Assembly (NCBI GenBank): GCA_937910695.1
Contig: CALEMW010000069.1
Span: 17,933-81,932, forward strand
Reading direction: 5' to 3'
From: an uncultured bacterium
GTDB taxonomy: Bacteria; Krumholzibacteriota; Krumholzibacteriia; LZORAL124-64-63
Length of the DNA stretch: 64,000 bases
The notes beneath the pieces are model-generated. The model was not told the origin of the DNA and ran no database searches. It was given only the letters and a program-made list of their open reading frames with translations. Shown here piece by piece: positions 1,153 to 55,571 of the stretch (position 1 is the stretch's first letter; each line of letters begins with the position of its first letter). The position numbers were made by a program, and so were the translations under genes.

Positions 1153-1154
1153 GG

Positions 1155-2239: not shown

Positions 2240-2559
2240 GAAGAAACCAGCCTGCGTTCAGGGTTCGCCGGGGGTCGAGCCGCGGCGCGAAAAAGAGGGC
2301 GTAATTGCCCCGAATTCCGCCGATCCGTGAACGCGACAAATAAGAGGTGCTGGCCTTGGGAGTGTCAAGAATTAGTGACCCGTCGTCATCACCGATAACC
2401 GAGTTCGTTTTCAGGACACTCGAGATCCGACGTCGACTCGAGTCCACATGGTGCCGATGGACGGCGTTCACCCTTGCCTCGCCTCACGTTTTGCAACAAG
2501 GTGTCGGTCGGTCCGTACCGTCCGGCTGCGCCGCCAACCGACTCTTCACAGGAGCGACG

Positions 2560-6894: not shown

Positions 6895-7323
6895 GAGCAC
6901 GCACCCTGGTTGGGGACGGCTGGTTGGAGAATCGGTACGAGAAATCGATCCTCCGCAACTCAAGACCGGTGTTCACATGACCACGATTGAGTCTTTTCCG
7001 GAGGGAAACGACTAGACCTGACCGTATCACCAGCTCAGGAAATAGTCACCCGTCATATTGGTAGGTATTTTTCAATAAGCCTGATTCCAACCAGGTGATA
7101 GGCAGTACATAACTCCTTGTATTCCGATATTCTTCAAAGCGCAGATGAATTGATCGTAATCAGCAAATCCTACAATGTTTCATCTAGATTTTGTCGCGAC
7201 AAGAATATGCAGTATCAACGTGTTTAATCTTGGACAACGCCTAAATTCATCCTAGTTTTTCCGTAGTGCATGATAATGGTTCTCATTATTGCCTGGACTC
7301 CTTCTTCGACCGGAGGCTTTTCC

Positions 7324-8466
7324 ATGACCCGTGGACGCTTCTCCCTCACAGCCTTGTTGGTCATCGTCCTGTTCATCCTCCCCGCCGTCGCCGCCCCTCG
7401 CCCCGAACTCCCCGGCGGCATCACCGACAAGCCCTACCTGGGCCGCGGCGGCGCCGACGTGATGATCGGCGGCTATATGGACCACGAGTTCCTGTGGACC
7501 GACAGCGCCAACACCTTCGACGCCCACCGCTTCGTGCCGTTCATCACCGCCCGCGTATCCGACCGCGTCACCGTGTCGACGGAGATCGAGTTCGAACACG
7601 GCGGCAACTTGGGTGGCGACGGCGAAGTGAAGCTCGAATACGCGGTCATGGACTTCAGCCTGAACGAGAAGGTGAGCTTCCGCGGTGGTGTGATCCTCTC
7701 GCCCTTGGGAGCCTTCAATCTGCGCCACGACTCCCCGCTCAACGACCTCACGGCACGGCCGACGGTCGACCGCCAACTCATTCCCTCGACCTTGAGCGAG
7801 TCGGGCATGGGCTTCTTCGGATCGTTGTACCCAAGCGACGAGAGCGCCCTGAGCTATGAAGTCTACCTGGTCAACGGATTCAACGAAGACGTGCTCTCAG
7901 GTGAGGCCGGCGCGAAGAAGCTGCGAATCCGCAGCGGCCGGGGCAGCCAGAAAATGGACAACAATGAGAACAAAGCCATCACGGGCCGCCTCGGTTTCAG
8001 CCCCCGCCTGGGTCTCGACCTCGGTCTTTCGACCCATACCGGCAAGTACGACGACGACGGCGAGAAGACCCTGACGATCACAGCTCTTGACGGCGCCGCC
8101 TCGTTCGGCGCCTTGGAGTTGACCGGCGAATTCGCCGTCGCATCGGCAGACGTCGACCAAAACGCTGAGCCCGGACTCGCGGAAGCCCAGCGTGGTGCCT
8201 ACGTCCAGACATCTTGGCACATTATGCACGATCGCCTGCTCGACGGATCGGTCGTGACCCTGACCGCCCGCGGCGACGTGATGGACTTCGACTCCGACAT
8301 CGACGGCGACAAGGAAGAGGGCCTGACCCTCGGTGTGAACCTGCGCCCCACCGAAGAAACCGTCTTCAAGCTCGACTGGAACCGCAGCTGGACGACGGCC
8401 CGCAACAGCACCGAACAAGGTGACGGCGAGGACCGGATCTCTTTCTCGTTCGCCACCTACTTCTAG
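7324..8466 (+). CDS. Outer-membrane beta-barrel protein (putative porin).
   Basis: A GGAGG RBS lies at 7312. The signal peptide is MTRGRFSLTALLVIVLFILPAVAA. The alternating amphipathic pattern and C-terminal ...FSFATYF (terminal Phe) are typical of OM barrels. No specific family was recognised. Confidence 0.55.
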   Translation: MTRGRFSLTALLVIVLFILPAVAAPRPELPGGITDKPYLGRGGADVMIGGYMDHEFLWTDSANTFDAHRFVPFITARVSDRVTVSTEIEFEHGGNLGGDGEVKLEYAVMDFSLNEKVSFRGGVILSPLGAFNLRHDSPLNDLTARPTVDRQLIPSTLSESGMGFFGSLYPSDESALSYEVYLVNGFNEDVLSGEAGAKKLRIRSGRGSQKMDNNENKAITGRLGFSPRLGLDLGLSTHTGKYDDDGEKTLTITALDGAASFGALELTGEFAVASADVDQNAEPGLAEAQRGAYVQTSWHIMHDRLLDGSVVTLTARGDVMDFDSDIDGDKEEGLTLGVNLRPTEETVFKLDWNRSWTTARNSTEQGDGEDRISFSFATYF

Positions 8467-8475
8467 GAGCCGCCG

Positions 8476-9045
8476 GTGTTCGTTCGAAACGCTTTGTTAT
8501 GGTTCGTCCTGCTCGGCGTCGGTTCAGCCGACGCCGGGGAGCGCACGTGGTACCGACCCACAGTCTTCCAGTCCTTCGACGCCGCGGTATCCGAAGTGTT
8601 CGCCGGTGCCGACTCGGTCTGGAGCGAGACCTGGACGCCCACGACCGAGGAACGAACCGCCCTCGACGAGCGCCTGGGCGAACACGTTTCAGAATCCTCG
8701 TTCACTTTCCACCGCGGCCGTCTCGGCTCTCACGACATGGGCTGGGCCCTGGTGCTCGACGAGATCGGTCTGCACGAACCCATCACCCATCTCGTGAAGA
8801 TCGACGACGACGGCACGATCGCAGACGTTCGGATCCTTGTGTTCCGTGAAACCCGCGGCGACGCGATCAAACGACCGCGCTTCCTCCAACAGTTCCGGGG
8901 CAAGACCGGACGGGATCGTTTGACGGTGGGGAGGGACATCGACGCCGTAACCGGGGCTACGTATTCCTCAAAGGCGATCACGCGCGGCGTGCGCAAGGCG
9001 TTGGCTCTTGTGGCTGCGAGATACGAAAATCGCCGGGACCGATGA
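8476..9045 (+). CDS. Secreted FMN-binding domain protein (NqrC/RnfG/PplA-like FMN_bind).
   Basis: It has a GTG start 6 nt after AGGAG. The signal peptide is MFVRNALLWFVLLGVGSA. The flavinylation motif DAVTGATYSSKAITRGV (T-G-A-T-x-S-S) is present. It lies directly downstream of the OM barrel gene. Confidence 0.7.
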   Translation: MFVRNALLWFVLLGVGSADAGERTWYRPTVFQSFDAAVSEVFAGADSVWSETWTPTTEERTALDERLGEHVSESSFTFHRGRLGSHDMGWALVLDEIGLHEPITHLVKIDDDGTIADVRILVFRETRGDAIKRPRFLQQFRGKTGRDRLTVGRDIDAVTGATYSSKAITRGVRKALALVAARYENRRDR

Positions 9046-9083: not shown

Positions 9084-12000
9084 CTACTTCGCCAACAACA
9101 TCTTGTGCGAGATCTCCCCGCCTTGATGCCTCAACCTCACGAAGTACACGCCCGACGCCGCGACCTGGCCCCGGTCGTCGACGCCGTCCCAGACCACGCG
9201 GTGGTCGCCGGCCGGCAGCGTGCCGTGCTGGAGCGTGCGCACGATGTGGCCTCGCACGTCCACCACGTCCAGGTTCACTTCGCCCGCAGCCGGCAGGGCG
9301 AAGATCACCGTCGTCGACGGGTTGAACGGGTTGGGGTAGTTGCCCGCGAGGGTCAGCAGGCGCGGGGCGTCGTCGGCGCCGGTGATGGTCTGCACCGTCA
9401 TGGTCACAGTCACGACCTCGGGGTCGGGCGCCGCGTTGTGGTGCACCATGACGTAGGCGACGTAGGTGCCGTCGGCCATGCCGGCGCTGACGCAGGTCAG
9501 GGTCACATCCTGGGAAGCGCCCTGGGCCAGCACGCCGGACGTCACGTCGGCGGACAGCCAGGTCACGGGCTCGAACAGGGTGAAGTCGGCGTCGCTGACG
9601 TCCGACACCGCGTCGTCGAGGCTCGCGACGCGGATGCGGGCGGTCGTCGTGCTCGGACCGTCGAGCACGGCCGTCAGCTCGCCGTCGTTCGGCGTGGTCG
9701 CAGCCAAGGTCGCCCAGGTGGTGCCGCCGTCACGGCTCAGCTCGACCTTCACGTCGGTCAGATCGCCGGCGTGGTCCCAGGTCAGACTGTGGCTCGTGCC
9801 CCAGCCCAGAGCCTCGCCGCCGTTGGGAGAGGTCACCGTCACCGACGGGCCCGATGCGGCCATGGTGAAGCTGCCGGTCAGGTCGTGGGGCGCAGAACCG
9901 TAGATGTCGCCCTGGACGAACCAGCCGAAGGTCTGCACGCCGGACAGCGAGCCGTCGAAGGTCACGTTGACCGTGGCGGTGGCCGTCTGGCCGCCGTGCA
10001 GGGCGCCCCAGCTGCCGTCGTTGCCGTGCCAGTTCACCGTCACGCCGTCGCCGGTGGTGCTGTCCCAGTTCAGGGGCGCCGAGCCGCCGCTGAAGGCGGT
10101 GGCCGAGTTCACGGTCACGCCGGAGGGGAAGGTCACCTCGATGTCGGTGAGCCACTCGTCGTCGCTGCTCCCGTTGGTGCAGGACAGATGCAGGTCGACG
10201 GTGGTTCCGGCGAAGAATCCGCTCTCGGTGCAGGTCACCGACGAGCCGGTCACGCTCTTCAGCCCGCGGGCGGGAGGCGTCTCGGCCTGGATCCCCAGGC
10301 TGAACTGGAGCTGGGAGTCGGGCTCGCCCGTGTTGGAGATGGTCAGCACGTCGGCGGTGATCACGTCGGGTGCCTGGGTGGCTGCGAAGGCCGTGCCGCT
10401 CAGGGCCAGGACCGGCGAAGCCAGGGCCACGTCGTCCACGAAGGGCTCGCGGTTCTGGGCGGTCACCACCACATGCAGGGGCTGGCCGCCGTCGGGCGTC
10501 GCCAGGAATACGATGTCCGCCGTGCCGGTGGCGCCCACGGTGCCGGCGCCGATCAGCGTCGTGCCCTGGCTCAAGCCGACGTAGCTGCCGGGGGACGCGG
10601 AGACGGTCAGGGACGTAGCGCCCAGCGCGCCGATGCTCACCGGGTTGGCCGCCGGCACGCCCATGTAGGTCGACAACGAAGGGTCGCCCAACAGGTTGTA
10701 GATGTTCCAGTAGTACGAGGTGCTGCCCGAGCCCGCTTCCTGCACGGCCAGGTTGCCGGCGAAGACGAGGGCGTCGTTGGTCACGTAGTACAGGTCCGCA
10801 GCCTCCCCGTGGTCGTGGAAGACGCCGTCGTAGGCGCCGGTGCCCGTGCCCGCGTAGGTGGGGTTGGCGTTGATGGACCCGGAGGCACACGATCCGACGC
10901 CCCACCAGAAGTCCTCGTCCCAGAGCGTGTTGTTCGAGGCGCCGATGTAGCCGATGGCGCCCTTGTTCGGCGCGCGCAGGAACGTCTCGCCGAAGCACTC
11001 GGCGTAGTTGAACGTGGCTGTGAGGCAGCAGTTGCCCACGGCCAAGGTGTACTTGCCCGCGTTGGTCAGGCTGTTGATGTTCGACTGGGTGAAGGTCGGA
11101 TCGGCCCAGCTGGTCTGGCTGCCGTGAGCGGTGTAGTTGATGTAGGCCACGCCGTCGCTGACGGTCTGGATGACGGCGCTTTCCACCGCACCGTTCGAAG
11201 CCGGGTACAGCCACGTGTTGCTGACCAGGTCGTGGGCGGCGTTGAAGTAGGTGTTGGTGCCGTAGTTGATCTGGCCGTTGCCGTGGGTCGGCGCGAAGCT
11301 CGCATCGACGCCGGCGATCATCGTGACCTCGCCCAGGTAGCTGGGGTCGGGCATGGTGAACTGGTCGTAGACGAGGGTCTTCTCGAGGATCGCCTGCAGC
11401 TGGCTCACGTTCGTGCACGAAAGACGGCCGTAGTAGATGTCGGGGACGTAGTCGCCGTCCATGGTGCAGTAGGGACGGTCGGTGGCGTCGCCGCCCACGG
11501 TCCAGGTGGGCATCTGACCGGTGTCGCCCACGAAGATCACGAAGCTCGGTGCCGGCGAAGCCGGCGTCGGGTTGTCGTACAGGTTCTGGATGAAGCTCTG
11601 GATCGACGTCGTCGTAGCACCGACCTCGGGCGTACCGGTGACCCCCACGATCACGTTGAAGCCGCGCTGGGTCTTCCAGTTCACGAAGTCGGTGAGGGTG
11701 TACTGGAACTCGGGAGGCGTGATGATCACCATCGTCACGACATCCTGGACATGGTCCGGGAAGCTGTCGTGCAATCCCCGCGAGCCGGTGAGCTGGTCGT
11801 AGAGATGGGTGTAGAAGGGGCTCCACGTTCCCTCGTAGAGATCGTCGCCGGCGACGCGGTCGCCGCCCTCGAACACCACGCGCAGATCCGCGCTCTCGAC
11901 GATCTCGAGTTCACCTGTTCCCGGCAGATAACGTATCGGGGAGTACTCCAGCCGCGCGAAGTCCACGCCGCGCAGACGGCCCTGGGGCACCACCACGGCG

Positions 12001-12476
12001 GTTTCGCGGGCCACCTTGACCACATCGTAGGCCGCGGTTTCGTACACGAAGGCCCAGTCGGCAGCTCCGACGTTCTTAGGCATGGACGGCTGGGCGGGCA
12101 TCACACGGATGTCGACGCCGTAGTCGGCCAACTTCACCGAACGAGTCACGAGGTTGGCGATCTCGACCCGTGCGGTTGCGCCGAAGGGCACCGCGATGAG
12201 CTCGTTCATCATGGGCAGCTCGGGGGCACCGAGGTCCTTGCTGGAATGGAATCCCGGCAGGACCAGGCGGGCGAAGTCGCCGCCCTTGGTCGCCACTTCC
12301 AAAGCTCGCAATTCGCCGACGGTGGCCCGAAAATTCAGCCCGGAACCGTCGGCGCCGACGAGTTCCAGTCCGTTGGTTTCAGGTCCGACCGGAATGGTGC
12401 GCGCGGGTGCGGCGAGGACCAAGCTCGGCACCAGCAGCAGGATAAGAATGAAAGCGAGCACGGATCGGCGTTCCAT
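9084..12476 (-). CDS. Gingipain-like cysteine peptidase (family C25) with a T9SS C-terminal sorting domain.
   Basis: A signal peptide and a propeptide-like N-terminus are present. The catalytic region has the His (INYTAHGSQTSWADP) and Cys (LAVGNCCLTATFNYAECFGE) signatures of C25. Ig-like domains follow, and the C-terminal ~80 aa is NYPNPFNPSTTVIFALPAAGEVNLDVVDVRGHIVRTL...VWDGVDDRGQVAASGVYFVRL...KMLLAK (Por_Secre_tail/FlgD-Ig-like). Confidence 0.8.
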   Translation of the reverse strand: MERRSVLAFILILLLVPSLVLAAPARTIPVGPETNGLELVGADGSGLNFRATVGELRALEVATKGGDFARLVLPGFHSSKDLGAPELPMMNELIAVPFGATARVEIANLVTRSVKLADYGVDIRVMPAQPSMPKNVGAADWAFVYETAAYDVVKVARETAVVVPQGRLRGVDFARLEYSPIRYLPGTGELEIVESADLRVVFEGGDRVAGDDLYEGTWSPFYTHLYDQLTGSRGLHDSFPDHVQDVVTMVIITPPEFQYTLTDFVNWKTQRGFNVIVGVTGTPEVGATTTSIQSFIQNLYDNPTPASPAPSFVIFVGDTGQMPTWTVGGDATDRPYCTMDGDYVPDIYYGRLSCTNVSQLQAILEKTLVYDQFTMPDPSYLGEVTMIAGVDASFAPTHGNGQINYGTNTYFNAAHDLVSNTWLYPASNGAVESAVIQTVSDGVAYINYTAHGSQTSWADPTFTQSNINSLTNAGKYTLAVGNCCLTATFNYAECFGETFLRAPNKGAIGYIGASNNTLWDEDFWWGVGSCASGSINANPTYAGTGTGAYDGVFHDHGEAADLYYVTNDALVFAGNLAVQEAGSGSTSYYWNIYNLLGDPSLSTYMGVPAANPVSIGALGATSLTVSASPGSYVGLSQGTTLIGAGTVGATGTADIVFLATPDGGQPLHVVVTAQNREPFVDDVALASPVLALSGTAFAATQAPDVITADVLTISNTGEPDSQLQFSLGIQAETPPARGLKSVTGSSVTCTESGFFAGTTVDLHLSCTNGSSDDEWLTDIEVTFPSGVTVNSATAFSGGSAPLNWDSTTGDGVTVNWHGNDGSWGALHGGQTATATVNVTFDGSLSGVQTFGWFVQGDIYGSAPHDLTGSFTMAASGPSVTVTSPNGGEALGWGTSHSLTWDHAGDLTDVKVELSRDGGTTWATLAATTPNDGELTAVLDGPSTTTARIRVASLDDAVSDVSDADFTLFEPVTWLSADVTSGVLAQGASQDVTLTCVSAGMADGTYVAYVMVHHNAAPDPEVVTVTMTVQTITGADDAPRLLTLAGNYPNPFNPSTTVIFALPAAGEVNLDVVDVRGHIVRTLQHGTLPAGDHRVVWDGVDDRGQVAASGVYFVRLRHQGGEISHKMLLAK

Positions 12477-18348: not shown

Positions 18349-18499
18349 GGGATCCTCCGAGTGGAATGGTGCGGAGGAATCCTAACCAGTTCGGGTCCGA
18401 ACGTCTGGACTTTTTCTCGAAATTCATCTTGATATTCGTACATATATCAATTATCTTCCTTGTTCATCCCCTCCCGGATCGAGAGCGTGCCCCGTGTGC

Positions 18500-19504
18500 A
18501 TGACAACGTTCCGCCCCGGCCTCCCGGCAGCGGCGGTGCATGATCATCTGCAAGCTTCCCTGCAGCAGATGCTGAGCGCCGAACAGGCCGCCGTTCTCTG
18601 GTTCGCCGACATCCTCGAACGCCGGCTCTATCGCGATCTCGGTTTCGGGACGATGATCCTCTACGCTCAAAACGCTCTCGGCTTCTCGCGCAGCAAAGCC
18701 TATGAATTCCTGCGTATGGCCCGGGAACTCGAGCGGCTGCCGCGAACGCGGAAGGCGGTCGAATCAGGGAACCTCTCCTGGACCAAGGCGCGGGAAGTCA
18801 CGAGCGTGGCCACCCCGGCCACCGAGAGTGCTTGGCTCGATGTGGCGAACACGTCGAGTCAGCGTGCATTGAAGACGTCGGTGAAGCAGACGAAAAATCG
18901 CCGCGCCGCCGCTGCTTGCGGACAAGCCGAGCTCGTGCCTGTCGAGCCTCTTCCCCCCGCCGAACCCCGAGTCTCGACGACATTGTCCCTGACCGCGACC
19001 CAGCGTGAGCGACTCGATACTCTCCTCGAAACACTGCGAAAGAACGGCGAAACCGGCTCCCGGGAAGATCTGCTGCTCCAGGGCCTGGAACTCCTCGCCG
19101 GTGATAAGTCCAGACGTCTGGACTCGGGGCCGGCTCAGCTGATCGTCATCGAGGAATGTCCGAAGTGCGGCGCGGCCGCGACGGGTGGCCGTCCCCTCGA
19201 TCCCGCCGATCTGGAAGCCGCCCGCTGCGACTCCGTCCTTCAGCAGGAAGGCCGCAACCGCGCCGTCATCCCCCCGTCGCAACGGCGCCGGGTCCTGGCC
19301 CGCGACCACCATGCGTGCACAACGGCCGGGTGTATGTCGCGGCGGTTTCTTCAGATCCATCACATCGTGCCGCGATCTGCAGGCGGCGCCAATACCATCG
19401 ACAATCTCACGACGCTCTGCAGTTCCTGTCATCAATCAGCCCATAAGAGAACCCGGCCGTCGAGCCCGCTGAGACTCGACGGCCGGGTGAAGTCTCCCCC
19501 ATAG
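18500..19504 (+). CDS. HNH endonuclease (DUF222/13E12-repeat-family-like N-terminal region plus HNH nuclease motif).
   Basis: The C-terminal region carries the HNH motif ...RRVLARDHHACTTAGCMSRRFLQIHHIVPRSAGGANTIDNLTTLCSSCH.... The N-terminal ~250 aa resemble DUF222. The alternative GTG start at 18494 is noted. Confidence 0.65.
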   Translation: MTTFRPGLPAAAVHDHLQASLQQMLSAEQAAVLWFADILERRLYRDLGFGTMILYAQNALGFSRSKAYEFLRMARELERLPRTRKAVESGNLSWTKAREVTSVATPATESAWLDVANTSSQRALKTSVKQTKNRRAAAACGQAELVPVEPLPPAEPRVSTTLSLTATQRERLDTLLETLRKNGETGSREDLLLQGLELLAGDKSRRLDSGPAQLIVIEECPKCGAAATGGRPLDPADLEAARCDSVLQQEGRNRAVIPPSQRRRVLARDHHACTTAGCMSRRFLQIHHIVPRSAGGANTIDNLTTLCSSCHQSAHKRTRPSSPLRLDGRVKSPP

Positions 19505-19512
19505 GAGATCGC

Positions 19513-22149
19513 CTACTTGATCAGCACCAATTTCGACGTCTCCCGCACGTCCCCCGCACGGAACACGGCGAAGTACACACCGGCGCCGAGTGCGCGGCCA
19601 CGGCCGTCGCGGCCGTCCCACATGGCGTGGTGTTCGCCCGCCGTCCGTACGCCGTCGACAAGGCGGCGCACGAGGCGACCTCGCTGGTCATGGATGTCGA
19701 TGGAGACCGGACCGTCCTTGGCCACGCTGTAACTCAGCTTGGTGGCCGGGTTGAATGGGTTCGGCGCCGCGCCGTGGAGGCGGTTCTCGAAGACCGGCAC
19801 ATCGTCGCTGCCGGTCAGGGTGATGACGAGTGACCCCGTTTCCATCAGCTGCGGCGGTGCCATACCCTGGGCGACCCAGGCGTCGTGCAGGTCCTGGCCG
19901 TAGGTGTTCGTGGTGTTTTCGTCGCGCAGGAACTCGATGTACTCCTTGCTGATCGACTGGTAGTACAGACTCACTTCGACGCTGGCCGTCGCAACGGGAA
20001 GCGTGTAGTGGGTGTCGTCCCAGTACTGACCATCGGCATAGGTATAGCCCACCGGAGGTGATTGGACAGTCTCGAAGGCAGCATTGGTGAAGCCGCGGGG
20101 CGGAATCCGGTTGTCCAGGAACACCGTGTCGTTCAGCACGAAGTGGAACGAGGGACCGTCGGGAATGCCGAGCAGGGCGCCGAGGCGCGTCGAGGTGCCG
20201 GGCTCGATGTGGTAGATCTTCGCATCGGCGTCGTGGGCGAGATCGGCGGTGACCGCATCGTAGGCCCCAGACTCGTAGATCAAAGCCGAGCCGACATCGA
20301 AAGCCTTCACGTTGATCCAGATGCGGCGGCCTTCGGGATACCCCGAGGGCAGCTTGTGCCCCGTCTCGTTGACCACGCGCACATTGATGCCCGGGAATCC
20401 GCCCTGGGCGGCTTCGGTGATTTCGAGGGTGGCGGCCTTCTGGAGCATGGCCGACACGCGGGTCTTGGCCGAGGCAAGGGCGGCGGGATCCACGGCGCCC
20501 GGGAAGAAGTCGAGAATGATGTCCGGCACGAAGTGGTTGCCGCCCGTCAGGTCGTGGACGGCGAGATCGCTGCGGATGGGGCCGGCGGCGGCGCCGCGAC
20601 CGCTGGCGTCGGCCATGTGGCAGTCCTGGCAGGTGCCCACCACGCCGTCGGGCTTGGTGCCCGCGAACTCGGGAGCGTAGACACCGGTCAGGGCGTACTC
20701 GCTCACGCTCCACTCGCTGAAGGTGCGTTCGACGGGGAACATGTTGCGCTTATCGCCGTCGGCATGGGGCGTATCGAGGGGATCGACCACATAAAGACCC
20801 GGCGAACCGCCATAGGCGAAGGCCGGATTGCTCACATCGTGACAGGTGCCGCAGATATCGCCGCGGCGGTGAAAGTCCGATTCGTAGAACTGATGGTCGG
20901 CCTGGGCGTCGGCATAGGGGCCGCGCATGATCGGGTCGGGGTCGGTGACGAACTGGCCGTTGCCGTACCCCAGCGGGATCGCGTCGAGGTCGTTCAGAAT
21001 CGTCTCATCCGAGGCCGGGCTCACGCCGACCTGGTAGATCGGATCGACGGCGCGGTGACAATAGTCGCACTGCACGCCGAAGCGGTCCGTCTCGGTCAGC
21101 AGACCGCCGGTCGTGTCGAGGGAGCGTCCCTCCTGCCAGCCGCCCGGCGTGTGGCAACGCAGGCAGAGATCGCCGCTTGAGGGCGCATCCTGCTCGGCGA
21201 TGATCATCGTGGCGATGAAGACGGGGTCCCGCATGGTGTTGCCCATCATGCTGCCCGACCAGTTGTACCAGGGCTCGGTGGCCGCGGCGTAGTCGCCGTG
21301 GCAGCTGCGGCACACCAGGTCCGGGTTGTCGAGGACACCGGAGCCGAAGGGTTGTGTGCCTGCGAGTTCGAAGTCGCGCAGGGTGGTGGGCGCCGTGCCC
21401 GCACCCCAGGCCGCGATGGTCACGTCGGCGTCGCTCATGTCTTCGCCCGTGTTGCCCACGAGATCGTAGGCCTCCACGATGATGCGGTTGTTCGCCCCGG
21501 GCAGGATGGGCAGGAAGATGTCCACGGTGCCGTCGTTGAGCAGGCCTTTGGCGATGGGCTTGCGCGAGGTTCCGCCGTCGTCGCTGAGATAGATGTCGAT
21601 GTCGGCGACGCCGTTGTCGTCGGTGGCGGTCCAGGTGATGGTCATCAAAGTGTTCGGCATGAGGGTCTCGCCGCCGTTGGGAGAGAGCACCGTGACCACG
21701 GGCGGCGTGGTGTCGCTCGATCCGGTCGGGGTGAGGTACGGTTGCACCTCGAGGGGATCGACATTGATGATCGACCCATAGTTGGACAGCTTCAGGCCCG
21801 GGAATGTGGGCGTGTTGGAGAAGCCGGCAATGTCGGTGATTTCCTGGAGATTGCTGAAACCGTCTCCGTCCGCATCCAGAGTTTCGACGGCGAGGATGGC
21901 CTGTTCATTGGTCAAGCCTCCTTGAATACCGACTTCGATCGAGAGTCCGAAGGGGTTCCGTGGCCCGCCCCCGTCGAAGTCGAAGTGGCATACGCCGCAA
22001 TGATTGGGATTGCTTGGCAGGGAGCTGATCTGTGTGCCGTCGGCTTGTGGATACAATGAGAAGAATGTGCGCCGGATGGGATTTCGAGCCAGAGCAGCTT
22101 GGGCGAGCAACAGAACGATGATCAGCAGGACGGGCGAGCGCCTGGACAT
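19513..22149 (-). CDS. Secreted multiheme c-type cytochrome (6 CXXCH) with a T9SS C-terminal sorting domain.
   Basis: A GGAGG RBS and a signal peptide are present. The heme motifs are CGVCH, CRSCH, CLRCH, CDYCH, CGTCH and CQDCH. The C-terminal ~85 aa is APNPFNPATKLSYSVAKDGPVSIDIHDQRGRLVRRLVDG...WDGRDGRGRALGAGVYFAVFRAGDVRETSKLVLIK, the same tail type as the C25 and M6 peptidases here. Confidence 0.8.
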   Translation of the reverse strand: MSRRSPVLLIIVLLLAQAALARNPIRRTFFSLYPQADGTQISSLPSNPNHCGVCHFDFDGGGPRNPFGLSIEVGIQGGLTNEQAILAVETLDADGDGFSNLQEITDIAGFSNTPTFPGLKLSNYGSIINVDPLEVQPYLTPTGSSDTTPPVVTVLSPNGGETLMPNTLMTITWTATDDNGVADIDIYLSDDGGTSRKPIAKGLLNDGTVDIFLPILPGANNRIIVEAYDLVGNTGEDMSDADVTIAAWGAGTAPTTLRDFELAGTQPFGSGVLDNPDLVCRSCHGDYAAATEPWYNWSGSMMGNTMRDPVFIATMIIAEQDAPSSGDLCLRCHTPGGWQEGRSLDTTGGLLTETDRFGVQCDYCHRAVDPIYQVGVSPASDETILNDLDAIPLGYGNGQFVTDPDPIMRGPYADAQADHQFYESDFHRRGDICGTCHDVSNPAFAYGGSPGLYVVDPLDTPHADGDKRNMFPVERTFSEWSVSEYALTGVYAPEFAGTKPDGVVGTCQDCHMADASGRGAAAGPIRSDLAVHDLTGGNHFVPDIILDFFPGAVDPAALASAKTRVSAMLQKAATLEITEAAQGGFPGINVRVVNETGHKLPSGYPEGRRIWINVKAFDVGSALIYESGAYDAVTADLAHDADAKIYHIEPGTSTRLGALLGIPDGPSFHFVLNDTVFLDNRIPPRGFTNAAFETVQSPPVGYTYADGQYWDDTHYTLPVATASVEVSLYYQSISKEYIEFLRDENTTNTYGQDLHDAWVAQGMAPPQLMETGSLVITLTGSDDVPVFENRLHGAAPNPFNPATKLSYSVAKDGPVSIDIHDQRGRLVRRLVDGVRTAGEHHAMWDGRDGRGRALGAGVYFAVFRAGDVRETSKLVLIK

Positions 22150-22375
22150 GACTCAACCTCCACGGTGTTGAGAGAGGCGCCGCTTCCCCGATACCGACAA
22201 CTCTCTTGATTTCGAGCTTGCAAGATCATGACGGAAATAATCGTGAATTTCCAGTGCTTGTTTATTTAATATCATACCCTAGTGGCTTAGTGGGGTTTTG
22301 AGACTCTGGACCTGGAGCGTCCCGGGGCGCATGATGAGGAGGGAATCGAACATCCTTCATGATCCGGGAGCCCCC

Positions 22376-22801
22376 ATGATCCGCCTGATCGCCGTCGGCA
22401 AGATGAAGGACCGCCACTACGCCGCTCTCGTGGAGCAATACGTGAAGCGGATCCGTCCCTGGGCCGGTCTCGAAATCGTCGAAATCAAGGACCAGGGGCC
22501 TGAACGCGAAGCGCAGGTCATGATCGAGCGGATCGGTCCGAGCGAGCACGTCGTGGCTATGGACGAACGCGGAGAAACTTTGACGTCGCGTGAACTGGGA
22601 GGTTTGCTGGCGATCTTCGGTTCGCCGACCTTCCTGATCGGCGGCCCGGACGGGCTGGGAGACAAGGTCCGCAGGCGGGCCGACCTCACCCTTTCGCTCT
22701 CGACCATGACCTTCCCCCACGAGCTGGCCCGCCTGATGCTCGTGGAGCAGATCTACCGCGGCCTGGCCATCAACCGCGGTCATGCCTATCACCGGGACTG
22801 A
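22376..22801 (+). CDS. rlmH: 23S rRNA (pseudouridine1915-N3)-methyltransferase RlmH.
   Basis: The 141-aa product is MIRLIAVGKMKDRHYAALVEQYVKRI...LIGGPDGLGDKV...LSLSTMTFPHELARLMLVEQIYRG (SPOUT/RlmH signature). A GGGAG RBS lies 6 nt upstream. The 26 track codons upstream are discarded. Confidence 0.8.
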   Translation: MIRLIAVGKMKDRHYAALVEQYVKRIRPWAGLEIVEIKDQGPEREAQVMIERIGPSEHVVAMDERGETLTSRELGGLLAIFGSPTFLIGGPDGLGDKVRRRADLTLSLSTMTFPHELARLMLVEQIYRGLAINRGHAYHRD

Positions 22802-22931
22802 GGGAACGTCGATGAAACATCGGAGTTCACCTGCGGTCCCCTCTTGGCGCGCCCGCTACCGTTCCCTATACTGGGCCCGTCCGCGGCCGGACGATCCGAC
22901 CGCCGTCGATCCGACCAACCAGAGGAACCCG

Positions 22932-23675
22932 ATGAACCGACCCAAGCTTCCGGGCACCTGCCTCACGGCGATCGTCCTCGCCGCGACGATCTTCGTCGCC
23001 GATCCGTCTGCGGCCGCCACCCTGCATCTCACCGGGCCCGACGGAGCCGTTGTGATCCTGGACGGCACCGTACTGGAAGCCCTGCCTCTGAGAGAACCCC
23101 TCACCGTAGGAATGGGCGAGCATAGGATCTCCTCCTCGCTGACCGGGGCCCAACCAGTCGACCAGACCCTGCTGGTCACCAGCGAACATCAGATCGTGCA
23201 CCTGCAGCTGCGCTTCGTTCCCCTGAACAGAATCAGCGCCGTAACTACGAGTCTGATGCTTGCCGGCTCCGGACAACGGTACGAAGGCCGACCACGTCTG
23301 GGCGCGGCCCTCACGGGCCTGGAGGCTCTCGGCCTGCTGACCGCGCTGATGTCGGAACTCCAGGTGAGAAACTTCAGGGACGACTACCTGCTCGCCTTCG
23401 AGTCCTATCAGAACGCCGTGTCGTCGGCGGACATTACAAGATGGCGCTCCGCCGCCACCACCAGCCACGACGACATGAACAGCGCCGCCGACCGGCGCGA
23501 CCTGGGCATCGCCGTGGCCGCCGGCGCGGTGATCGTGAGCGCCCTGGACGCCTGGTTCCGCTTCCCCGCCCTGGACGCCGGCGTGGACCTGACGACAACC
23601 GGCCCGTTCGAGACCGCCCTGGCTCCCGCCGGGATCTCGCCCCGCGCCCATGTCACCCTCACCCTGAACTTCTGA
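22932..23675 (+). CDS. Secreted PEGA-domain protein (hypothetical).
   Basis: An AGAGGA RBS precedes the signal peptide MNRPKLPGTCLTAIVLAATIFVADPSAAA. A PEGA-like segment (GPDGAVVILDGTVLEALPLREPLTVGMGEHRISSS) is present and the protein ends in Phe. Alternative starts are at 22812 and 22782. Confidence 0.45.
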   Translation: MNRPKLPGTCLTAIVLAATIFVADPSAAATLHLTGPDGAVVILDGTVLEALPLREPLTVGMGEHRISSSLTGAQPVDQTLLVTSEHQIVHLQLRFVPLNRISAVTTSLMLAGSGQRYEGRPRLGAALTGLEALGLLTALMSELQVRNFRDDYLLAFESYQNAVSSADITRWRSAATTSHDDMNSAADRRDLGIAVAAGAVIVSALDAWFRFPALDAGVDLTTTGPFETALAPAGISPRAHVTLTLNF

Positions 23676-23688
23676 GAGGAGGGCGACG

Positions 23689-25185
23689 ATGCACCGTTCC
23701 GACCTACGCCTGATTCCCGCCGTCGTCCTGTTGGCGACCCTGATCGCGGCGATGTTCCTGGGCTGCACCGAAACGCCTACCGAAGCCGAGTACAACAATC
23801 CCCTCGATCCGGGTGGCCCCTTCGGTGGCGACCCCTTCAGCCTGCAGGCCAACCTTTCCGGCAATGCGGTCTTCCTGACCTGGACGGGGCTCAACCTCGG
23901 CGACCTGGCCGGATACCGGGTGGAACGCAGGTCGGGCAACGAGACGGTCTTCATCGAAATCGTCGAGCTCGGACCTGCTTTCACGGTCTACCAGGACTCG
24001 ACCTACGCTCCCAACGCAGCCAACTCGTATCGGGTCCTTGCCCTGAATGCAGCGGGCAATTCCAACGCCACCTCGGCGATCACGCCCGCAACGATCGTGG
24101 CGCCGGCCCTCGTCGATCTGGGCGGATACGAAACTTCGGCCACCCGACTCGTCGACATCCTGGTCCGCGCTTCGATAGGTGAAAGCGTCGAAGTGGACGA
24201 CGATCCGGATTTCGCTTCCGCGTCCGTCTTCCCCCTCGACGAGGTGGGTGTAGCCTCTTTCAGCTGGGACCTGGGCACAGCTGCGGCCAACGGAGAGAAG
24301 AAGTACATCCACACGCGTGTTTTCACCGCCGGCGTACCCTCTCCCTCGCGCATCGATTCTCTGACTGTGGATTTCTCGCCGGTCCTTATCTTCGTCGGCA
24401 ACCCTGCGACGCTGGCCAGCCGGACAACGCCGCTGGCGATCAGCGGTGGCGGCATGACCCGCATGCGCTTCGCCGTCGACCGCGCCGGGCTCGAAGCGGA
24501 GCCCTGGCTCGACGCCGCTGACTCCTTCGATGGATGGGAACTCACGGCTGCCGCGGATTCGCAACTTGTGTTCGGCGAGTTCGACGGGGAATTCGGCTTC
24601 ACGTTCGTGGACAGCGCCTGGGCGGCCCCGGACAGTCTGGTGGGTCTGACTCTCATATTGAACGGCGGCAGCGAATCGGTGATCGGCGACAGCCTCCCGG
24701 TGTACATCAACGCCGTCGCCACCCAGTTCCGCGCCGCCCAGAGCGAAGATGCCTTGGCCGTCACGCCCTGGGAACCCTACGACGGCCCGTCCGACTTCGT
24801 GCACGACGGCTGCGGATCAGCTTTAGAGAAGACCGTCTACGCCCAGGTCCGCAACGACTGGTTCACCTCGGCACCCTTGAGCGGCACCGTCATCTGGCAG
24901 CCGGACGAGGTGCTGGGAGCCACCTTCACCGGACCTGAGAGCGTGACCGCCGGTGCGGCGGTAACACTGAGCGGCACAGCAGTGCAAGGCACCTGCAACT
25001 CAACTGTCGATATGGTGAATGTGGATGTGGGGGACGGCTGGGTCGCCGCATCCGGTACCCTCGCCTGGAGTCTGGCGTGGACAGCACCGACCGAGGCAGG
25101 AGAAGTAGAAATCCAAGTCCAGGTCGTCGCCGGCGCCGATGTATCGCTGATCCAGACCTTCCATATCGTCGTCGTTGCACCCTGA
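23689..25185 (+). CDS. Lipoprotein with a fibronectin-III-like domain (hypothetical).
   Basis: A GAGAGGAGG RBS precedes the lipobox ...LIAAMFLGC. An FN3-like segment follows (LSGNAVFLTWTGLNLGDLAGYRVERRSGNETV...YRVLALNAAGNS). The rest of the 498 aa is unassigned. Confidence 0.5.
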   Translation: MHRSDLRLIPAVVLLATLIAAMFLGCTETPTEAEYNNPLDPGGPFGGDPFSLQANLSGNAVFLTWTGLNLGDLAGYRVERRSGNETVFIEIVELGPAFTVYQDSTYAPNAANSYRVLALNAAGNSNATSAITPATIVAPALVDLGGYETSATRLVDILVRASIGESVEVDDDPDFASASVFPLDEVGVASFSWDLGTAAANGEKKYIHTRVFTAGVPSPSRIDSLTVDFSPVLIFVGNPATLASRTTPLAISGGGMTRMRFAVDRAGLEAEPWLDAADSFDGWELTAAADSQLVFGEFDGEFGFTFVDSAWAAPDSLVGLTLILNGGSESVIGDSLPVYINAVATQFRAAQSEDALAVTPWEPYDGPSDFVHDGCGSALEKTVYAQVRNDWFTSAPLSGTVIWQPDEVLGATFTGPESVTAGAAVTLSGTAVQGTCNSTVDMVNVDVGDGWVAASGTLAWSLAWTAPTEAGEVEIQVQVVAGADVSLIQTFHIVVVAP

Positions 25186-28099: not shown

Positions 28100-28380
28100 C
28101 GCGACCTCCGTTCAGGGGTAGCAGTCTTGGGGGGGGGCGGGCGACCCCGGTCTCGGGCGAACACAGCAGCGTCAAGACGGTGACGCCAATGGCTATTATA
28201 CCATAGATGGGTGTTTGCCGCGACCCGACCATCTCCTACCAACATACTATGTAATCAATTTGTTTCGAATTTTATTGACACAATAGATCTAACCTCTAGC
28301 TTGGGTGTTGTTCTTTTGTCAATCCCCATCCGGCTCTCTCCGGATTCCATTGTGTGAGCATGTTCATCTGGGAGGATGTC

Positions 28381-28722
28381 ATGAGAAGAACCGCACTGGC
28401 ACTGGCTCTATTGGCCCTTCTGGCCGGCGGCGCCGTTGCCGCGGACAAGGCCGAAAAGCTGGACGGCAAGACCCTCTACAAGACCATGTGCAAGGTCTGC
28501 CACGGCGAAGACGCCGAAGCGGGTGAATACACGCCCATGTACCTGATCATCGAGCAGTGGGAACGCTTCTTCGACGAGGACTACGCCGAGACCCACGCCG
28601 AGGCCGCCTACGAGGACGGCGCGAAGGTGATCGATGCCATCACCCCCGAAATGCTCAAGCTGATCCGTGAATTCTGCATCGAGGGTGCCGCCGATTCCGA
28701 GCACCCGATGACCTGCGGTTAA
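28381..28722 (+). CDS. Periplasmic monoheme cytochrome c.
   Basis: A GGGAGG RBS lies at 28370. The signal peptide is MRRTALALALLALLAGGAVAA, followed by the single heme motif CKVCH. Length is 113 aa. The GTG at 28354 in the track is upstream of the RBS. Confidence 0.7.
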   Translation: MRRTALALALLALLAGGAVAADKAEKLDGKTLYKTMCKVCHGEDAEAGEYTPMYLIIEQWERFFDEDYAETHAEAAYEDGAKVIDAITPEMLKLIREFCIEGAADSEHPMTCG

Positions 28723-28750
28723 CCCGAAGCCCCCACCCGGAGGTACCGAC

Positions 28751-30478
28751 ATGAAGAAGATGTACGCCCTCGTCCTGATCCTGACCGTGTTCGCGGCCGG
28801 GTTCGCTGTTGCGGACGAAGACAACGCCAAGCTCGAGAAAAAGATCAAGGACCTCGAGAAACGCCTGCGCCATGTCGAGGTCAAGGCGGCCAAGGACCGT
28901 ATGGAGTTCACCGGCGACATGCGCGTCGAGGTGAGCAACATCAACGCCGAAGTCGGGCCCTACGTGGACGGCATGACGGTTCAGAACGCCATGGCCCAGA
29001 CTCTGTTCTACTTCGGCATGAACCAGGACAACCCGACGGGTCCGCTGCCCATGACTCCCCTAGGCGGTCTCGACTTCACCGCTCTCGGAAACTACATCAT
29101 GGCCAACGGCGGCGACTATATGGCCTACGCCAATTCCATGACCTTCGCCGACCTCCAGGGCGGCATGATGGATCTGTTGACGGCCATGGCCCAGATGAAC
29201 GGCATGGATCCCTCGACTCTGACTCCTGCTCAGTGGGCCGGTCTTCAGGACCAGGCCATGCAGATGATGGCAGCCGCCCCCGGCGCCGACCAGGACGGCT
29301 ACGACTACAAGAACGACGTGCTCTACACCACGCGCCTGCGCCTCAACATGAACGCCAAGGTCGCCGAGAACGTCGACTTCCAGGGCCGCCTGACCATGTA
29401 CAAGCCCTGGGGCGACAGCTCCGGCGTGCAGGTCTTCAACGGCCAGAGCAACAGCCTGAACATCGACGGCACTTCGGGCCGTTACCCCAACAGCGACATC
29501 CTCCGCGTCGAGCGCGCCTACTTCAACTGGCGCCACATCGCCGACACGTCGTTCTACCTGAGCTTCGGCCGTCGCCCCAGCGCGGGTGGCCCGCCCATGC
29601 ACTTCCGCGACGACGAGATGCGCGCCGGCACGCCCCTGGGCACGCTCATCGACTTCGCCTTCGACGGCATCACCGCCGGCTTCACACCCTACGAGGGCGG
29701 CACGTTCCGCCTGTGCTACGGCCTGGGCTACGAGTCGGGATTCGGCTCCGCCGAGAACCTGAAGCCGGAGGCGAACCGTCTGAAGGACGCCCACTTCTTC
29801 GGCTTCAACTGGGACATGCTCAACAAGGACGGCATCACGATGCAGTCCACCGTCGCCCGCGCCTTCGACGTGACCGACGGCTTCAACGGCCTCGTCGTGC
29901 TGCCGGACAACCCGGTCAGCGGCGATGCCATCGGCGCGCCGATGGTCATGCGCTTCTCCCCCTCGGCCAACCTGGGCGACATCGACCTGGCCGGCCTGCT
30001 GGTGACCTACGAGAACGACCGGTTCGACCTGTTCGCCAGCTACAACATCATGAAGTCGCACCCCGATGCCGTGACCACGCCCTTCGGCGGCCTGTTCTGC
30101 GATCCCTTCGACACCCCCGAAGAGCAGACCGGCAAGATGGGCTACATCGGCGCCCGTTATAAGTTCAGCAACGACAAGACCAAGCTGGGCGTGGAGTACA
30201 ACGAGGGCAGCCAGTACTGGTTCAACTTCAGCCACGGCGCCGACGACATCTTCGCCCCGAAGACCGGCACCCGCGGCTCGGTGATCGAGGTCTACCTGAC
30301 CCACCGCATCGCCCAGAAGTTCCTCTGCAAGCTCGATTTTATGCAGTACGACTACGACTACAGCGGCTCGGGTTGGCACCTGGGCGCCCCCAAGGCCCTC
30401 GACGCCACGCCGATGCTCGGTTACCCGACCTTCGACAAGGCCACGGTCGTGTCGCTGAGCTCGACGGTGCGTTTCTAA
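28751..30478 (+). CDS. Outer-membrane beta-barrel protein with an N-terminal coiled-coil (DUF3373-like putative porin).
   Basis: A GGAGG RBS and the signal peptide MKKMYALVLILTVFAAGFAVA are present. A coiled-coil follows (DEDNAKLEKKIKDLEKRLRHVEVKAAKDR). The ~500-aa Gly/Tyr/Asn-rich alternating beta-pattern ends ...SLSSTVRF with a terminal Phe. Confidence 0.6.
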   Translation: MKKMYALVLILTVFAAGFAVADEDNAKLEKKIKDLEKRLRHVEVKAAKDRMEFTGDMRVEVSNINAEVGPYVDGMTVQNAMAQTLFYFGMNQDNPTGPLPMTPLGGLDFTALGNYIMANGGDYMAYANSMTFADLQGGMMDLLTAMAQMNGMDPSTLTPAQWAGLQDQAMQMMAAAPGADQDGYDYKNDVLYTTRLRLNMNAKVAENVDFQGRLTMYKPWGDSSGVQVFNGQSNSLNIDGTSGRYPNSDILRVERAYFNWRHIADTSFYLSFGRRPSAGGPPMHFRDDEMRAGTPLGTLIDFAFDGITAGFTPYEGGTFRLCYGLGYESGFGSAENLKPEANRLKDAHFFGFNWDMLNKDGITMQSTVARAFDVTDGFNGLVVLPDNPVSGDAIGAPMVMRFSPSANLGDIDLAGLLVTYENDRFDLFASYNIMKSHPDAVTTPFGGLFCDPFDTPEEQTGKMGYIGARYKFSNDKTKLGVEYNEGSQYWFNFSHGADDIFAPKTGTRGSVIEVYLTHRIAQKFLCKLDFMQYDYDYSGSGWHLGAPKALDATPMLGYPTFDKATVVSLSSTVRF

Positions 30479-30485
30479 GGAGTCC

Positions 30486-31892
30486 ATGATGAAGCGAGCG
30501 AGTGTGATGCTCCTGCTCGTCGCCATCGCGGCGGTATCCGGCCCCTCGGGGGCCGGCGCCGCCACGGCGTCGCATGCGGAGATGTTCGAGCACTACGAAG
30601 GCACGGCCACCTGCCTCGAATGCCACGAGGACGAGGCCGCCGCATTCTTCCACACCCAGCACTACCAGTGGCGGGGCGAGAACCCAGGCCTGGCCAACGT
30701 CGACGGCCAGCGCCTCGGCAAGATCAACACCATCAACGATTTCTGCACCAACCCGATGCCGAGCTGGATCGGCAACGCCGTCAACGAGGACGGCAAGGTG
30801 CTGGCCCAGGGTTGTTCGAAGTGCCACGCCGGTCTCGGCCTGAAGCCCGAGCCCGTGCTGTCGCGGGAGCAGCTCGAGAACATCGACTGCCTGATCTGCC
30901 ACGCGAGCGGCTACCGGCGCGACATCACCCAGGACGAGAACGGCAACGACGTGTGGCGCTCCATCCTCTGGGGCCGCAACCAGGCCGGCCTCGACGCCAT
31001 CGCCAAGCGCATCAGCCTGCCCGGCCGCAAGATGTGCCTGCGCTGCCATTCCGGCGCCGGCGGCGGTCCGAACTTCAAGCGCGGCGACATCGAATACGAG
31101 CTGGCCGAGACCGACCGCACCTTCGATGTGCACATGGGCACCGACGGCGCCGACATGGCCTGCATCGACTGCCACCGCGGCGACGACCACCGCGTGCGCG
31201 GCCGCGGCGCCGACCTCTCGGGTACCGACATGCCCCACGCCAACCTGCGCTGCACCGAATGTCACGACGCGAGGCCCCACGGCAAGCTGGTCCTGGACAA
31301 GCACGCCGAACGGATCGCCTGCGAGACCTGCCACATTCCGACCTTCGCCAAGCGCGACCAGACCGACATGGTCCGCGACTGGTCGACGCCCAAGTACCAC
31401 CCCGACGCCAAGAAGTGGTCGGCGACGATCACCATGGGCCAGGACGTGGTGCCCGAGTACGCCTGGTGGAACGGCATGACGATCCACCAGGAGATGGGCG
31501 TGAAGGCCGAAGCCGGCGACGACGGCGTGATCGCCACGATGCGGCCGGTGGGCTCGAAGAAGGACGATGGCTCGAAGATCTATCCCTTCAAGCTCCACCG
31601 CGGGCGTCTGCCCCGCCTCGTGAACCAGGGCTGGCTCGTGCCCCTGGCCGTGGACGAGTTCTTCGTGGACGGAGATCTCGAAAAGGCGGTGCAGGAAGGC
31701 GGCCACGTCGCCTACGGACTCGAGCACTTCGAGTACGAGTGGGTCGACGTGAAGCGCTACATGGGGATCTACCACGAGGTGCTGCCGGCGTCGGGAGCCC
31801 TCGACTGCCTCGACTGCCATAGCGAGGATGGGCGCTTTCCCTGGACCGCGCTGGGGTACAAGGAAGATCCTGTGTTGAAGCGGATGAAGTAG
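30486..31892 (+). CDS. Octaheme c-type cytochrome (8 CXXCH).
   Basis: An AAGGAG RBS and a signal peptide are present. The heme motifs are CLECH, CSKCH, CLICH, CLRCH, CIDCH, CTECH, CETCH and CLDCH. It lies 7 nt downstream of the barrel gene. Confidence 0.8.
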   Translation: MMKRASVMLLLVAIAAVSGPSGAGAATASHAEMFEHYEGTATCLECHEDEAAAFFHTQHYQWRGENPGLANVDGQRLGKINTINDFCTNPMPSWIGNAVNEDGKVLAQGCSKCHAGLGLKPEPVLSREQLENIDCLICHASGYRRDITQDENGNDVWRSILWGRNQAGLDAIAKRISLPGRKMCLRCHSGAGGGPNFKRGDIEYELAETDRTFDVHMGTDGADMACIDCHRGDDHRVRGRGADLSGTDMPHANLRCTECHDARPHGKLVLDKHAERIACETCHIPTFAKRDQTDMVRDWSTPKYHPDAKKWSATITMGQDVVPEYAWWNGMTIHQEMGVKAEAGDDGVIATMRPVGSKKDDGSKIYPFKLHRGRLPRLVNQGWLVPLAVDEFFVDGDLEKAVQEGGHVAYGLEHFEYEWVDVKRYMGIYHEVLPASGALDCLDCHSEDGRFPWTALGYKEDPVLKRMK

Positions 31893-55534: not shown

Positions 55535-55571
55535 CCTTGTCGGGACCATCACGATCGCCATGGGAGACGTC

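Follow-up and report, generated by a model that had tools for sequence, protein, structure and literature searches.

A hexaheme c-type cytochrome with a predicted type IX secretion sorting domain in an uncultured Krumholzibacteriota bacterium, and the phylum-dependent tails of its pentaheme core

Domain organization of the cytochrome and its C-terminal tail

The window analyzed here is a 64-kb stretch (64,000 nucleotides) of contig CALEMW010000069.1, from an uncultured bacterium of the Krumholzibacteriota, and the subject of this work is one of its genes, a complete open reading frame (ORF) on the minus strand (19513–22149) that encodes an 878-residue hexaheme c-type cytochrome. According to the ORF list and its translation, the gene starts with ATG and ends with a stop codon at 19513–19515, and its coding signature is strong (GC3 of 0.84 versus GC2 of 0.47). 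CXXCH motifs lie at residues 51, 280, 329, 361, 433 and 507. The only cysteines of the protein are the 12 in these six motifs. Composition alone predicts 0.004 motifs, and all six are invariant across 51 orthologs. The original prediction for this DNA described a multiheme cytochrome c with six CXXCH motifs that ends in a type IX secretion system (T9SS) sorting domain, and these counts bear out the first part of that description.

By inspection, residues 1–22 (22084–22149; this and the following features lie on the minus strand) form a putative Sec-type signal peptide, MSRRSPVLLIIVLLLAQAALA followed by R, with no lipobox cysteine and with a modelled helix at residues 4–20. The N-terminal accessory domain (residues 23–145; 21715–22083) contains heme motif 1 (HCGVCH, residues 50–55) and a DADGDG calcium-loop-like motif. 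It shows a local match to diheme_GEGP of NCBIfam at residues 48–107 and a weak one to Temptin_C of Pfam, and residues H50, C51, C54 and H55 of its heme motif are invariant among orthologs. Next come a bacterial immunoglobulin (Ig)-like domain of the Big_7 family (residues ~150–245; 21415–21702; PF17957, 27.5 bits against a cutoff of 24.1; model strands with pLDDT 81–93) and a core composed of a pentaheme domain (residues ~250–570; 20440–21402), which holds the remaining five CXXCH motifs, and an Ig-like β-sandwich (residues ~573–775; 19825–20433; model strands with pLDDT 76–94). Cytochrome_C7 and C554 of Pfam match the pentaheme domain, and the Pfam matches to the heme part are only generic multiheme ones. 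The β-sandwich carries an invariant loop, GHKLPSGYPEGRR (residues 597–609), and the motif DNRIPPRG (residues 679–686). An AlphaFold2 model computed from the 51 orthologs (mean pLDDT 74, pTM 0.66) resolves a helical N-terminal domain, the Big_7 domain, a heme-rich region with five motifs, the β-sandwich and a C-terminal sandwich.

This last sandwich (residues 790–878; 19516–19782; pLDDT of ~81–92) runs to the last residue of the protein and ends in KLVLIK. When the last 92 residues were scored alone on TIGR04183, the T9SS type A sorting-domain model, they reached 25.6 bits (E = 8.8e-6), which exceeds the model's cutoff of 23. This borderline pass is reinforced by the orthologs, in which 51 of 51 tails match TIGR04183 at E ≤ 1e-3 (best E = 2.3e-11). 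By the curated model, then, the tail belongs to the T9SS type A sorting domains, as had been predicted. The Pfam model FlgD_ig also matches the tail at residues 815–859, with 34.1 bits against a cutoff of 27. Tails from the candidate phyla have a short WDGRDxxGR insertion, which accounts for the FlgD_ig score. We ruled out a FlgD hook-capping protein: only the Ig-like part matches, the FlgD N-terminal domain is missing, and the window has no flagellar genes.

The same kind of tail occurs on other proteins encoded in the window. The cytochrome tail is 41% identical to that of a C25 peptidase, 48% identical to that of an M6 peptidase and 30% identical to that of an 861-residue repeat protein. 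All four tails share the motifs PNPFNP, D-x-x-G-R, GVYF and K-x-x-L-x-K with the tails of Bacteroidota homologs, in keeping with the earlier claim that the cytochrome and the two peptidases end in the same domain. The C25 peptidase (9084–12476, minus strand, 1130 residues) comprises a C25 propeptide, a catalytic domain, an Ig domain and a T9SS C-terminal domain (CTD; TIGR04183, 32.0 bits). It is a homolog of Lys-gingipain, Kgp (PDB 4rbm, E = 5e-86), and its host genome, of a candidate phylum, is distant from Porphyromonas. The possibility that it is instead the sortase PorU was rejected, with a score of 68.5 bits on the PorU model against a cutoff of 420. As a Lys-gingipain homolog rather than PorU, it represents an archetypal kind of T9SS cargo. 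The repeat protein (61414–63999, minus strand) has long internal repeats of autotransporter- or adhesin-like type and a T9SS CTD scoring 28.3 bits; its ORF begins at the window edge, and its N-terminus is probably cut off. On related contigs, subtilisin-, metzincin- and M1-type peptidases bear the same CTD tag.

The arrangement resembles that of the gingipains Kgp and RgpB, type A cargo of Porphyromonas gingivalis, in which a Sec signal peptide is likewise combined with a C-terminal β-sandwich of ~80–90 residues. It differs in the passenger, here a multiheme cytochrome, and in the host, which belongs to a candidate phylum of the FCB group and not to the Bacteroidota. The tail also differs from gingipain-type CTDs in having the WDGRDxxGR insertion and in scoring as FlgD_ig.

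The pentaheme core and its closest relatives

A Foldseek search against the PDB gave a single clear match (E = 2e-10, TM-target 0.54), namely 5ZE8, the structure of a low-potential cytochrome with five hemes, c552 of Thermochromatium tepidum. We also used 23 sequences representing ~8 phyla to build a profile of the core. This profile matches 5ZE8 at E = 5e-7, spanning heme motifs 1–3, and matches MccSep/ExtKL of Geobacter locally. No PDB match was found in a single-sequence phmmer search with the core; 5ZE8 was reached only through profiles and the fold search. The five core CXXCH motifs are invariant over the 23 sequences. So is a loop, vtNetGHKLpsGyPeGRR, which in the profile alignment corresponds to MTNHAGHSIPDG-U325-PTPNR of MccSep and IRNLQPHAMPTGAP of c552, with GHSIPDG-U325-P and PHAMPTGAP as the respective counterparts of GHKLPSGYPEGRR.

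A pentaheme "PHC family" has been proposed that includes ExtKL, Gsu2801, cytochromes of cable bacteria and c552, and its fold has been linked structurally to AvECN, an extracellular cytochrome filament of archaea (PMC11976967). Profile alignment and model together identify the heme core of the window's cytochrome (residues ~250–775) as a member of this fold family. Like c552 (5ZE8) and MccSep/ExtKL (9WT8), it has five CXXCH motifs followed by a β-sandwich, and the three share the signature N-x-x-G-H-x-[LI]-P-x-G-x-P in the loop that opens the Ig-like domain. The core is larger, however, with ~530 residues compared to ~385–450 for the whole c552 and MccSep proteins, and only the cytochrome adds an N-terminal single-heme domain, a Big_7 domain and a T9SS sorting domain.

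MccSep is a periplasmic polysulfide reductase with five hemes and an Ig-like domain; its heme 2 is ligated by His and Cys239, its catalytic residue is the selenocysteine Sec325, and its active site is formed by a loop of the Ig domain (bioRxiv 10.1101/2025.11.18.688581). The window's cytochrome has neither the heme-ligating cysteine nor the selenocysteine. Because it contains no cysteine outside the CXXCH motifs and has Tyr604 at the position of Sec325, MccSep chemistry is impossible here, and we ruled out a polysulfide reductase of that type. Throughout the core family, the position of Tyr604 is occupied by Tyr or Phe.

A second substitution affects a predicted heme ligand. The GSMH motif of c552 reads GSMM in the core family, where M301 is invariant and M302 is present in at least 90% of sequences. 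As the residue replaced is the axial His of c552, this suggests that one core heme is His/Met-ligated through M302 and has a higher potential. Conserved candidates for the sixth ligand are available for all five core hemes (M301/M302, H419, H532, H598 and H669). Motifs invariant across the core family are ERTxSEW, GHKLxxGxPEGRR and DNRIPPxG.

The cytochromes MtrC, OmcA and MtrF of Shewanella are likewise multiheme c-type proteins that face outward, as is predicted for the cytochrome studied here, and there is weak similarity to PF22113 over three heme motifs. A decaheme of this kind was nonetheless ruled out. The PF22113 score (24.5 bits) is below the cutoff of 30, sequence searches of the PDB matched no chain of this group, and the flanking genes encode an HNH endonuclease and RlmH. 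MtrC, OmcA and MtrF have ten hemes, a lipoprotein signal and MtrAB-type partners, whereas the protein here has six hemes, no lipobox and no such partners. The predicted export routes differ as well: MtrC and OmcA are exported by the type II system, and T9SS is predicted for the cytochrome.

Variation of the C-terminal module among phyla

Full-length orthologs (56–99% identity) number in the hundreds to thousands and, where named, are labelled Krumholzibacteriia, Eisenbacteria/Eiseniibacteriota or Latescibacteria. A search with the core alone retrieved 2,604 clusters (50% identity), of which 510 have E ≤ 1e-30, and the core family includes >7,800 proteins at E ≤ 1e-20. Public annotation calls these proteins 'T9SS type A sorting domain-containing protein', 'PKD domain-containing protein' or 'cytochrome c553', with no assigned function.

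We compared the regions past the core in one scan of species-representative genomes and found that this part of the protein varies by phylum. A T9SS CTD follows the core in Krumholzibacteriota, Eisenbacteria, Latescibacterota and cultured Bacteroidota; tails that pass TIGR04183 include those from Eiseniibacteriota (29.6 bits), Draconibacterium (24.8), a metagenome-assembled genome (MAG) of Bacteroidales (31.8) and a MAG labelled Chlorobiaceae (43.9). In Myxococcota the tail is MYXO-CTERM (28.5 and 27.9 bits, cutoff 20), in Planctomycetes and Zixibacteria it is Dockerin_1 (26.8 to 38.7 bits, cutoff 22.9), and in Verrucomicrobia it is another β domain. Crude tail classes in 150 diverse representatives showed the same mix. 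The MYXO-CTERM and dockerin homologs have the same core as the window's cytochrome, with 33–53% identity in the best aligned segment and all of the invariant motifs, and differ in the C-terminal sorting or anchoring module. Planctomycete homologs keep both the N-terminal heme domain and the Big_7 domain; the former is missing from Bacteroidota, Myxococcota and Zixibacteria homologs, and the latter from Myxococcota and Zixibacteria homologs.

The conserved passenger thus takes each phylum's own surface or extracellular tag, which argues strongly for a surface or extracellular location. This swapping of tails by phylum is, in our comparison, the strongest evidence that the protein works outside the periplasm. 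Because the tail is exchanged on a conserved core, the CTD is best viewed as a sorting module and not as part of the redox machine.

Among cultured bacteria, the PHC core is joined to a T9SS CTD in Draconibacterium sediminis, D. mangrovi, Maribellus sediminis, Aestuariivivens sediminicola, Carboxylicivirga caseinilyticus, Mangrovibacterium lignilyticum, M. diazotrophicum and M. marinum. A second family is unrelated to the PHC core. Its example in Fidelibacterota (CP070638.1, locus L083, 8246–10294) is a nine-CXXCH cytochrome whose tail scores 47.2 bits on TIGR04183. At E ≤ 1e-10, this nine-heme family comprises 692 proteins, almost all of which carry PF18962; their hosts are Fidelibacterota, Calditrichaeota, KSB1, Neomarinimicrobiota, Ignavibacteriaceae, Melioribacteraceae and Bacteroidota. 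Comparison with other CTD-bearing cytochromes of the FCB group, which the original prediction had proposed, therefore yielded both the PHC core in Bacteroidota and the nine-heme family, and by these searches the T9SS-tagged cytochrome is not a one-off.

According to a review (PMC12398890), neither T9SS nor CTD proteins occur outside the FCB superphylum, which fits the lineage of the host. Full-text literature searches turned up no description of a cytochrome exported by T9SS, no paper joining T9SS with multiheme proteins or multiheme proteins with MYXO-CTERM, and none joining type IX secretion with Latescibacter or Eisenbacteria, or Krumholzibacter with T9SS; the earlier statement that this delivery route is not established agrees with that outcome. 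Papers on Melioribacter mention Por domains only on carbohydrate-active enzymes. Predicted secreted multiheme proteins have been reported as enriched in MAGs of Krumholzibacteriota, Myxococcota, Planctomycetota, Acidobacteriota and Chloroflexota from activated sludge (PMC11495043), and an iron-fed reactor enriched a Krumholzibacteria MAG (PMC7914226). The domain call is not new, as T9SS sorting-domain labels are already assigned to orthologs by automated NCBI annotation. What is new is the combination of cytochrome and T9SS CTD, its generality and the swapping of tails.

Tentatively, and with somewhat less than even confidence, we propose that T9SS is the general export route for multiheme cytochromes of the FCB group, in the role that the type II system has in Shewanella and Geobacter, serving at least two unrelated families (the PHC core and the nine-heme family), and that the PHC core is a pan-bacterial extracellular oxidoreductase whose tag is exchanged phylum by phylum. 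In Gram-negative bacteria, the outward-facing cytochromes known so far are delivered to the surface by the type II system and are partnered with porin–cytochrome conduits. If the proposal is correct, there would be a second delivery route for folded, heme-loaded cytochromes, and the cargo range of T9SS would extend to redox proteins with covalent cofactors. An outward redox surface would be gained by Krumholzibacteriota, Eisenbacteria, Latescibacterota, Calditrichota, KSB1, Marinimicrobia/Fidelibacterota and Ignavibacteria, which are largely uncultured phyla of heterotrophs, and by sediment Bacteroidota. Surface redox chemistry would then occur in abundant phyla of sediment, soil and activated sludge that are commonly interpreted as polymer degraders and nothing more. 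As the same core with a canonical T9SS tag occurs in cultured, sequenced Prolixibacteraceae and relatives, the question can be taken beyond metagenomes and addressed at the bench now.

Export, function and genomic surroundings

We consider it probable that the hexaheme cytochrome resides outside the cell. The signal peptide would direct the apoprotein to the periplasm, where six hemes would be attached at the observed CXXCH motifs. The folded holoprotein would be recognized through its type A sorting domain and passed over the outer membrane by T9SS, a step we propose because of the sorting domain, the co-resident cargo with the same tag and the swapping of tails. The CTD would be removed, as in other type A cargo, and the protein anchored on the surface or released. 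Its working part outside the cell would then be a pentaheme chain set against an Ig-like domain, together with the N-terminal single-heme domain and the Ig spacer. The PHC core would exchange electrons with an extracellular partner, for which minerals (Fe or Mn oxides), humic substances, soluble oxidants or reductants and other surface proteins are candidates. For this proposal as a whole (T9SS export, anchoring or release, and electron trade with an external partner) we see about an even chance. The original prediction also envisaged a cell-surface redox protein that might be a terminal for extracellular electron transfer. Tail swapping supports the location; the role as a terminal is a conjecture that gains nothing from the gene's surroundings or kinship, given that the gene is solitary, no conduit gene neighbors it and the protein shows no kinship to MtrC, OmcA or OmcS.

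Several observations weigh against the proposal. TIGR04183 scores the whole protein at 20.3 bits, just below its cutoff, and is surpassed by FlgD_ig in scoring the tail. Genes for the T9SS core (SprA/Sov, PorK/L/M/N, PorV or PorU) were not detected with Pfam and NCBIfam in the window; among 20 signal-peptide proteins encoded on related contigs there was further CTD cargo but no core component, and the Pfam-annotated flanks of seven related loci held no core gene either, in scans that covered far less than 1% of any one genome, too small a sample for a true negative, and included no seed-based search aimed at the core. No porin–cytochrome gene adjoins the cytochrome gene. An all-versus-all comparison of the flanking ORFs of 46 loci revealed no neighbor conserved across phyla: synteny was seen only inside the close clade, and across phyla only generic ABC ATPases, kinases and regulators recurred. 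The core is about 39–64% identical between phyla and has many invariant non-heme residues, and in its conservation it resembles fast-evolving mineral reductases less than it does enzymes or specific partner proteins. MccSep, the one characterized relative, is periplasmic. Finally, the heme-binding loops have pLDDT <50 in the model, such that axial ligands are not assignable from it.

The conservation of the core is central to the main alternative, which keeps the outward location. Here the protein is not an electron conduit but an enzyme, either secreted or held at the surface; its PHC core catalyzes a specific redox reaction of some soluble compound outside the cell (a species of sulfur, nitrogen or oxygen, or a chelated metal), and the T9SS tag only places the enzyme there. 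At 56–81% identity among full-length orthologs and 39–64% across phyla, conservation is very high for a surface cytochrome, and the three invariant core motifs, one of which belongs to the Ig-domain loop from which MccSep, the closest characterized relative and itself an enzyme, builds its active site, fit this reading. So do the solitary position of the gene, which lacks a conduit partner, and the presence of the core family in lineages labelled Polyangiales, Verrucomicrobia and Phycisphaerae, which are not known as mineral respirers. On the other hand, the catalytic residues of MccSep are missing, the invariant His and Met residues suffice as sixth ligands for the five core hemes, leaving no open catalytic heme evident, and no substrate-related genes lie near the cytochrome gene. 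We regard this enzyme reading as rather unlikely.

The tail scores and the missing core genes bear on another alternative, a periplasmic PHC-type cytochrome whose FlgD-Ig-like tail is a structural or binding module, in a lineage that either lacks T9SS or does not recognize this tail. Besides scoring higher on FlgD_ig than on TIGR04183, with the whole protein below the latter's cutoff, the tail resembles FlgD structures more than the CTDs of PorU and PorZ. T9SS core genes were absent from the window and the related-contig samples scanned, and 97% of MccSep homologs, like MccSep itself, are predicted or shown to be periplasmic (bioRxiv 10.1101/2025.11.18.688581). Yet the tail alone passes TIGR04183 and those of all 51 orthologs match it, the same tail is found on the gingipain homolog and other secreted hydrolases, and there is neither a FlgD N-terminal domain nor a flagellar context. 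The finding of MYXO-CTERM, dockerin or a canonical T9SS CTD at the same position elsewhere is, moreover, hard to square with a structural module. These data make a periplasmic location improbable. A polymerizing cytochrome, the subunits of which would stack their heme chains into a filament (nanowire) after export, would fit the link of the PHC/c552 fold to AvECN (PMC11976967) and the predicted extracellular location, but is very improbable. Filament subunits are compact, whereas this protein is large, has several domains and includes Ig spacers as well as a sorting tag; no PDB sequence match to OmcS, OmcE, OmcZ or AvECN chains was found at E ≤ 1, and no inter-subunit ligand motif was identified.

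Candidates for T9SS components were also considered individually. An unannotated gene pair in the window (22782–23675 and 23689–25185), neither member of which has a Pfam or NCBIfam match, was ruled out as GldL/GldM, the second product being a lipoprotein that lacks a motor-like N-terminal helix pattern. Giant ORFs in related loci were ruled out as SprA for want of SprA domains. A size-pattern scan for gldKLMN-like runs of four genes produced one candidate, at locus L015 (13945–18639), in which the fourth gene is PAP2-like by eye.

With regard to a possible electron path, the window contains a plus-strand cluster (28354–31892) that encodes a monoheme cytochrome c (122 residues, with a signal peptide), a DUF3373 protein and an octaheme cytochrome (468 residues). 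The DUF3373 protein has a signal peptide and a terminal Phe and is barrel-like. The cluster lies 6.6 kb from the cytochrome gene, and within 3.5 kb of it in a 61%-identity relative (L084). The octaheme protein is a homolog of the octaheme tetrathionate reductase of Shewanella (1SP3, E = 1.2e-54), and because it belongs to an enzyme family, the notion that it and the DUF3373 barrel (28751–31892) might form a porin–cytochrome conduit is speculative. In a 60%-identity relative (L085), two multiheme cytochrome genes (953–3848) lie 6–9 kb from the hexaheme gene; they encode a 442-residue Multi-haem_cyto protein and a 517-residue protein with a faint NapC/NirT-type match. The neighborhoods of hexaheme genes are cytochrome-rich, yet these genes are not arranged as operons.

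The cytochrome gene itself looks like a stand-alone transcription unit, since its flanks are a convergent HNH endonuclease gene and a divergent rlmH. A Shine–Dalgarno-like GGAGG (22157–22161, minus strand), read from the sequence, lies 7 nt 5′ of the ATG, with an AT-rich stretch farther upstream. A consensus scan detected no sigma-70-like site on the gene's strand. The same scan placed a terminator-like hairpin of 17 pairs, 12 of them G–C, followed by a T-rich tail, at 19451–19488 (minus strand), starting 25 nt past the stop codon; this is a consensus match only, of which shuffled sequence yields about as many, and it overlaps the 3′ end of the HNH gene.

The HNH gene (18494–19504, plus strand) ends 8 nt from the stop codon of the cytochrome gene. 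In a 79%-identity relative (L006), a C69 peptidase gene directly follows the cytochrome gene with no HNH gene between them, and for this reason the HNH gene appears to have been inserted recently. The hexaheme ortholog of two Eisenbacteria genomes is followed directly downstream by a second copy that has five CXXCH motifs and ~840 residues (L031, 12721–15249; L032, 12756–15275). These second copies look like tandem paralogs that lack the N-terminal heme domain.

Elsewhere in the window, a 436-residue ORF (55560–56870, plus strand) shows a partial match to the Hvo_1808 surface-protein family (124.9 bits against a cutoff of 200). This family is named after a haloarchaeon and is unexpected in a bacterial genome of the FCB group; a 508-residue ORF overlaps on the opposite strand, and the true frame is uncertain. 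Another plus-strand ORF (7270–8466) encodes a cysteine-free protein of 398 residues with a signal peptide, a C-terminus ending in ATYF, the look of an outer-membrane barrel and no Pfam or NCBIfam match. It is directly followed by a gene for a flavin mononucleotide (FMN)-binding-domain protein (8476–9045, plus strand), and the barrel-like protein is kept in related loci (L009).

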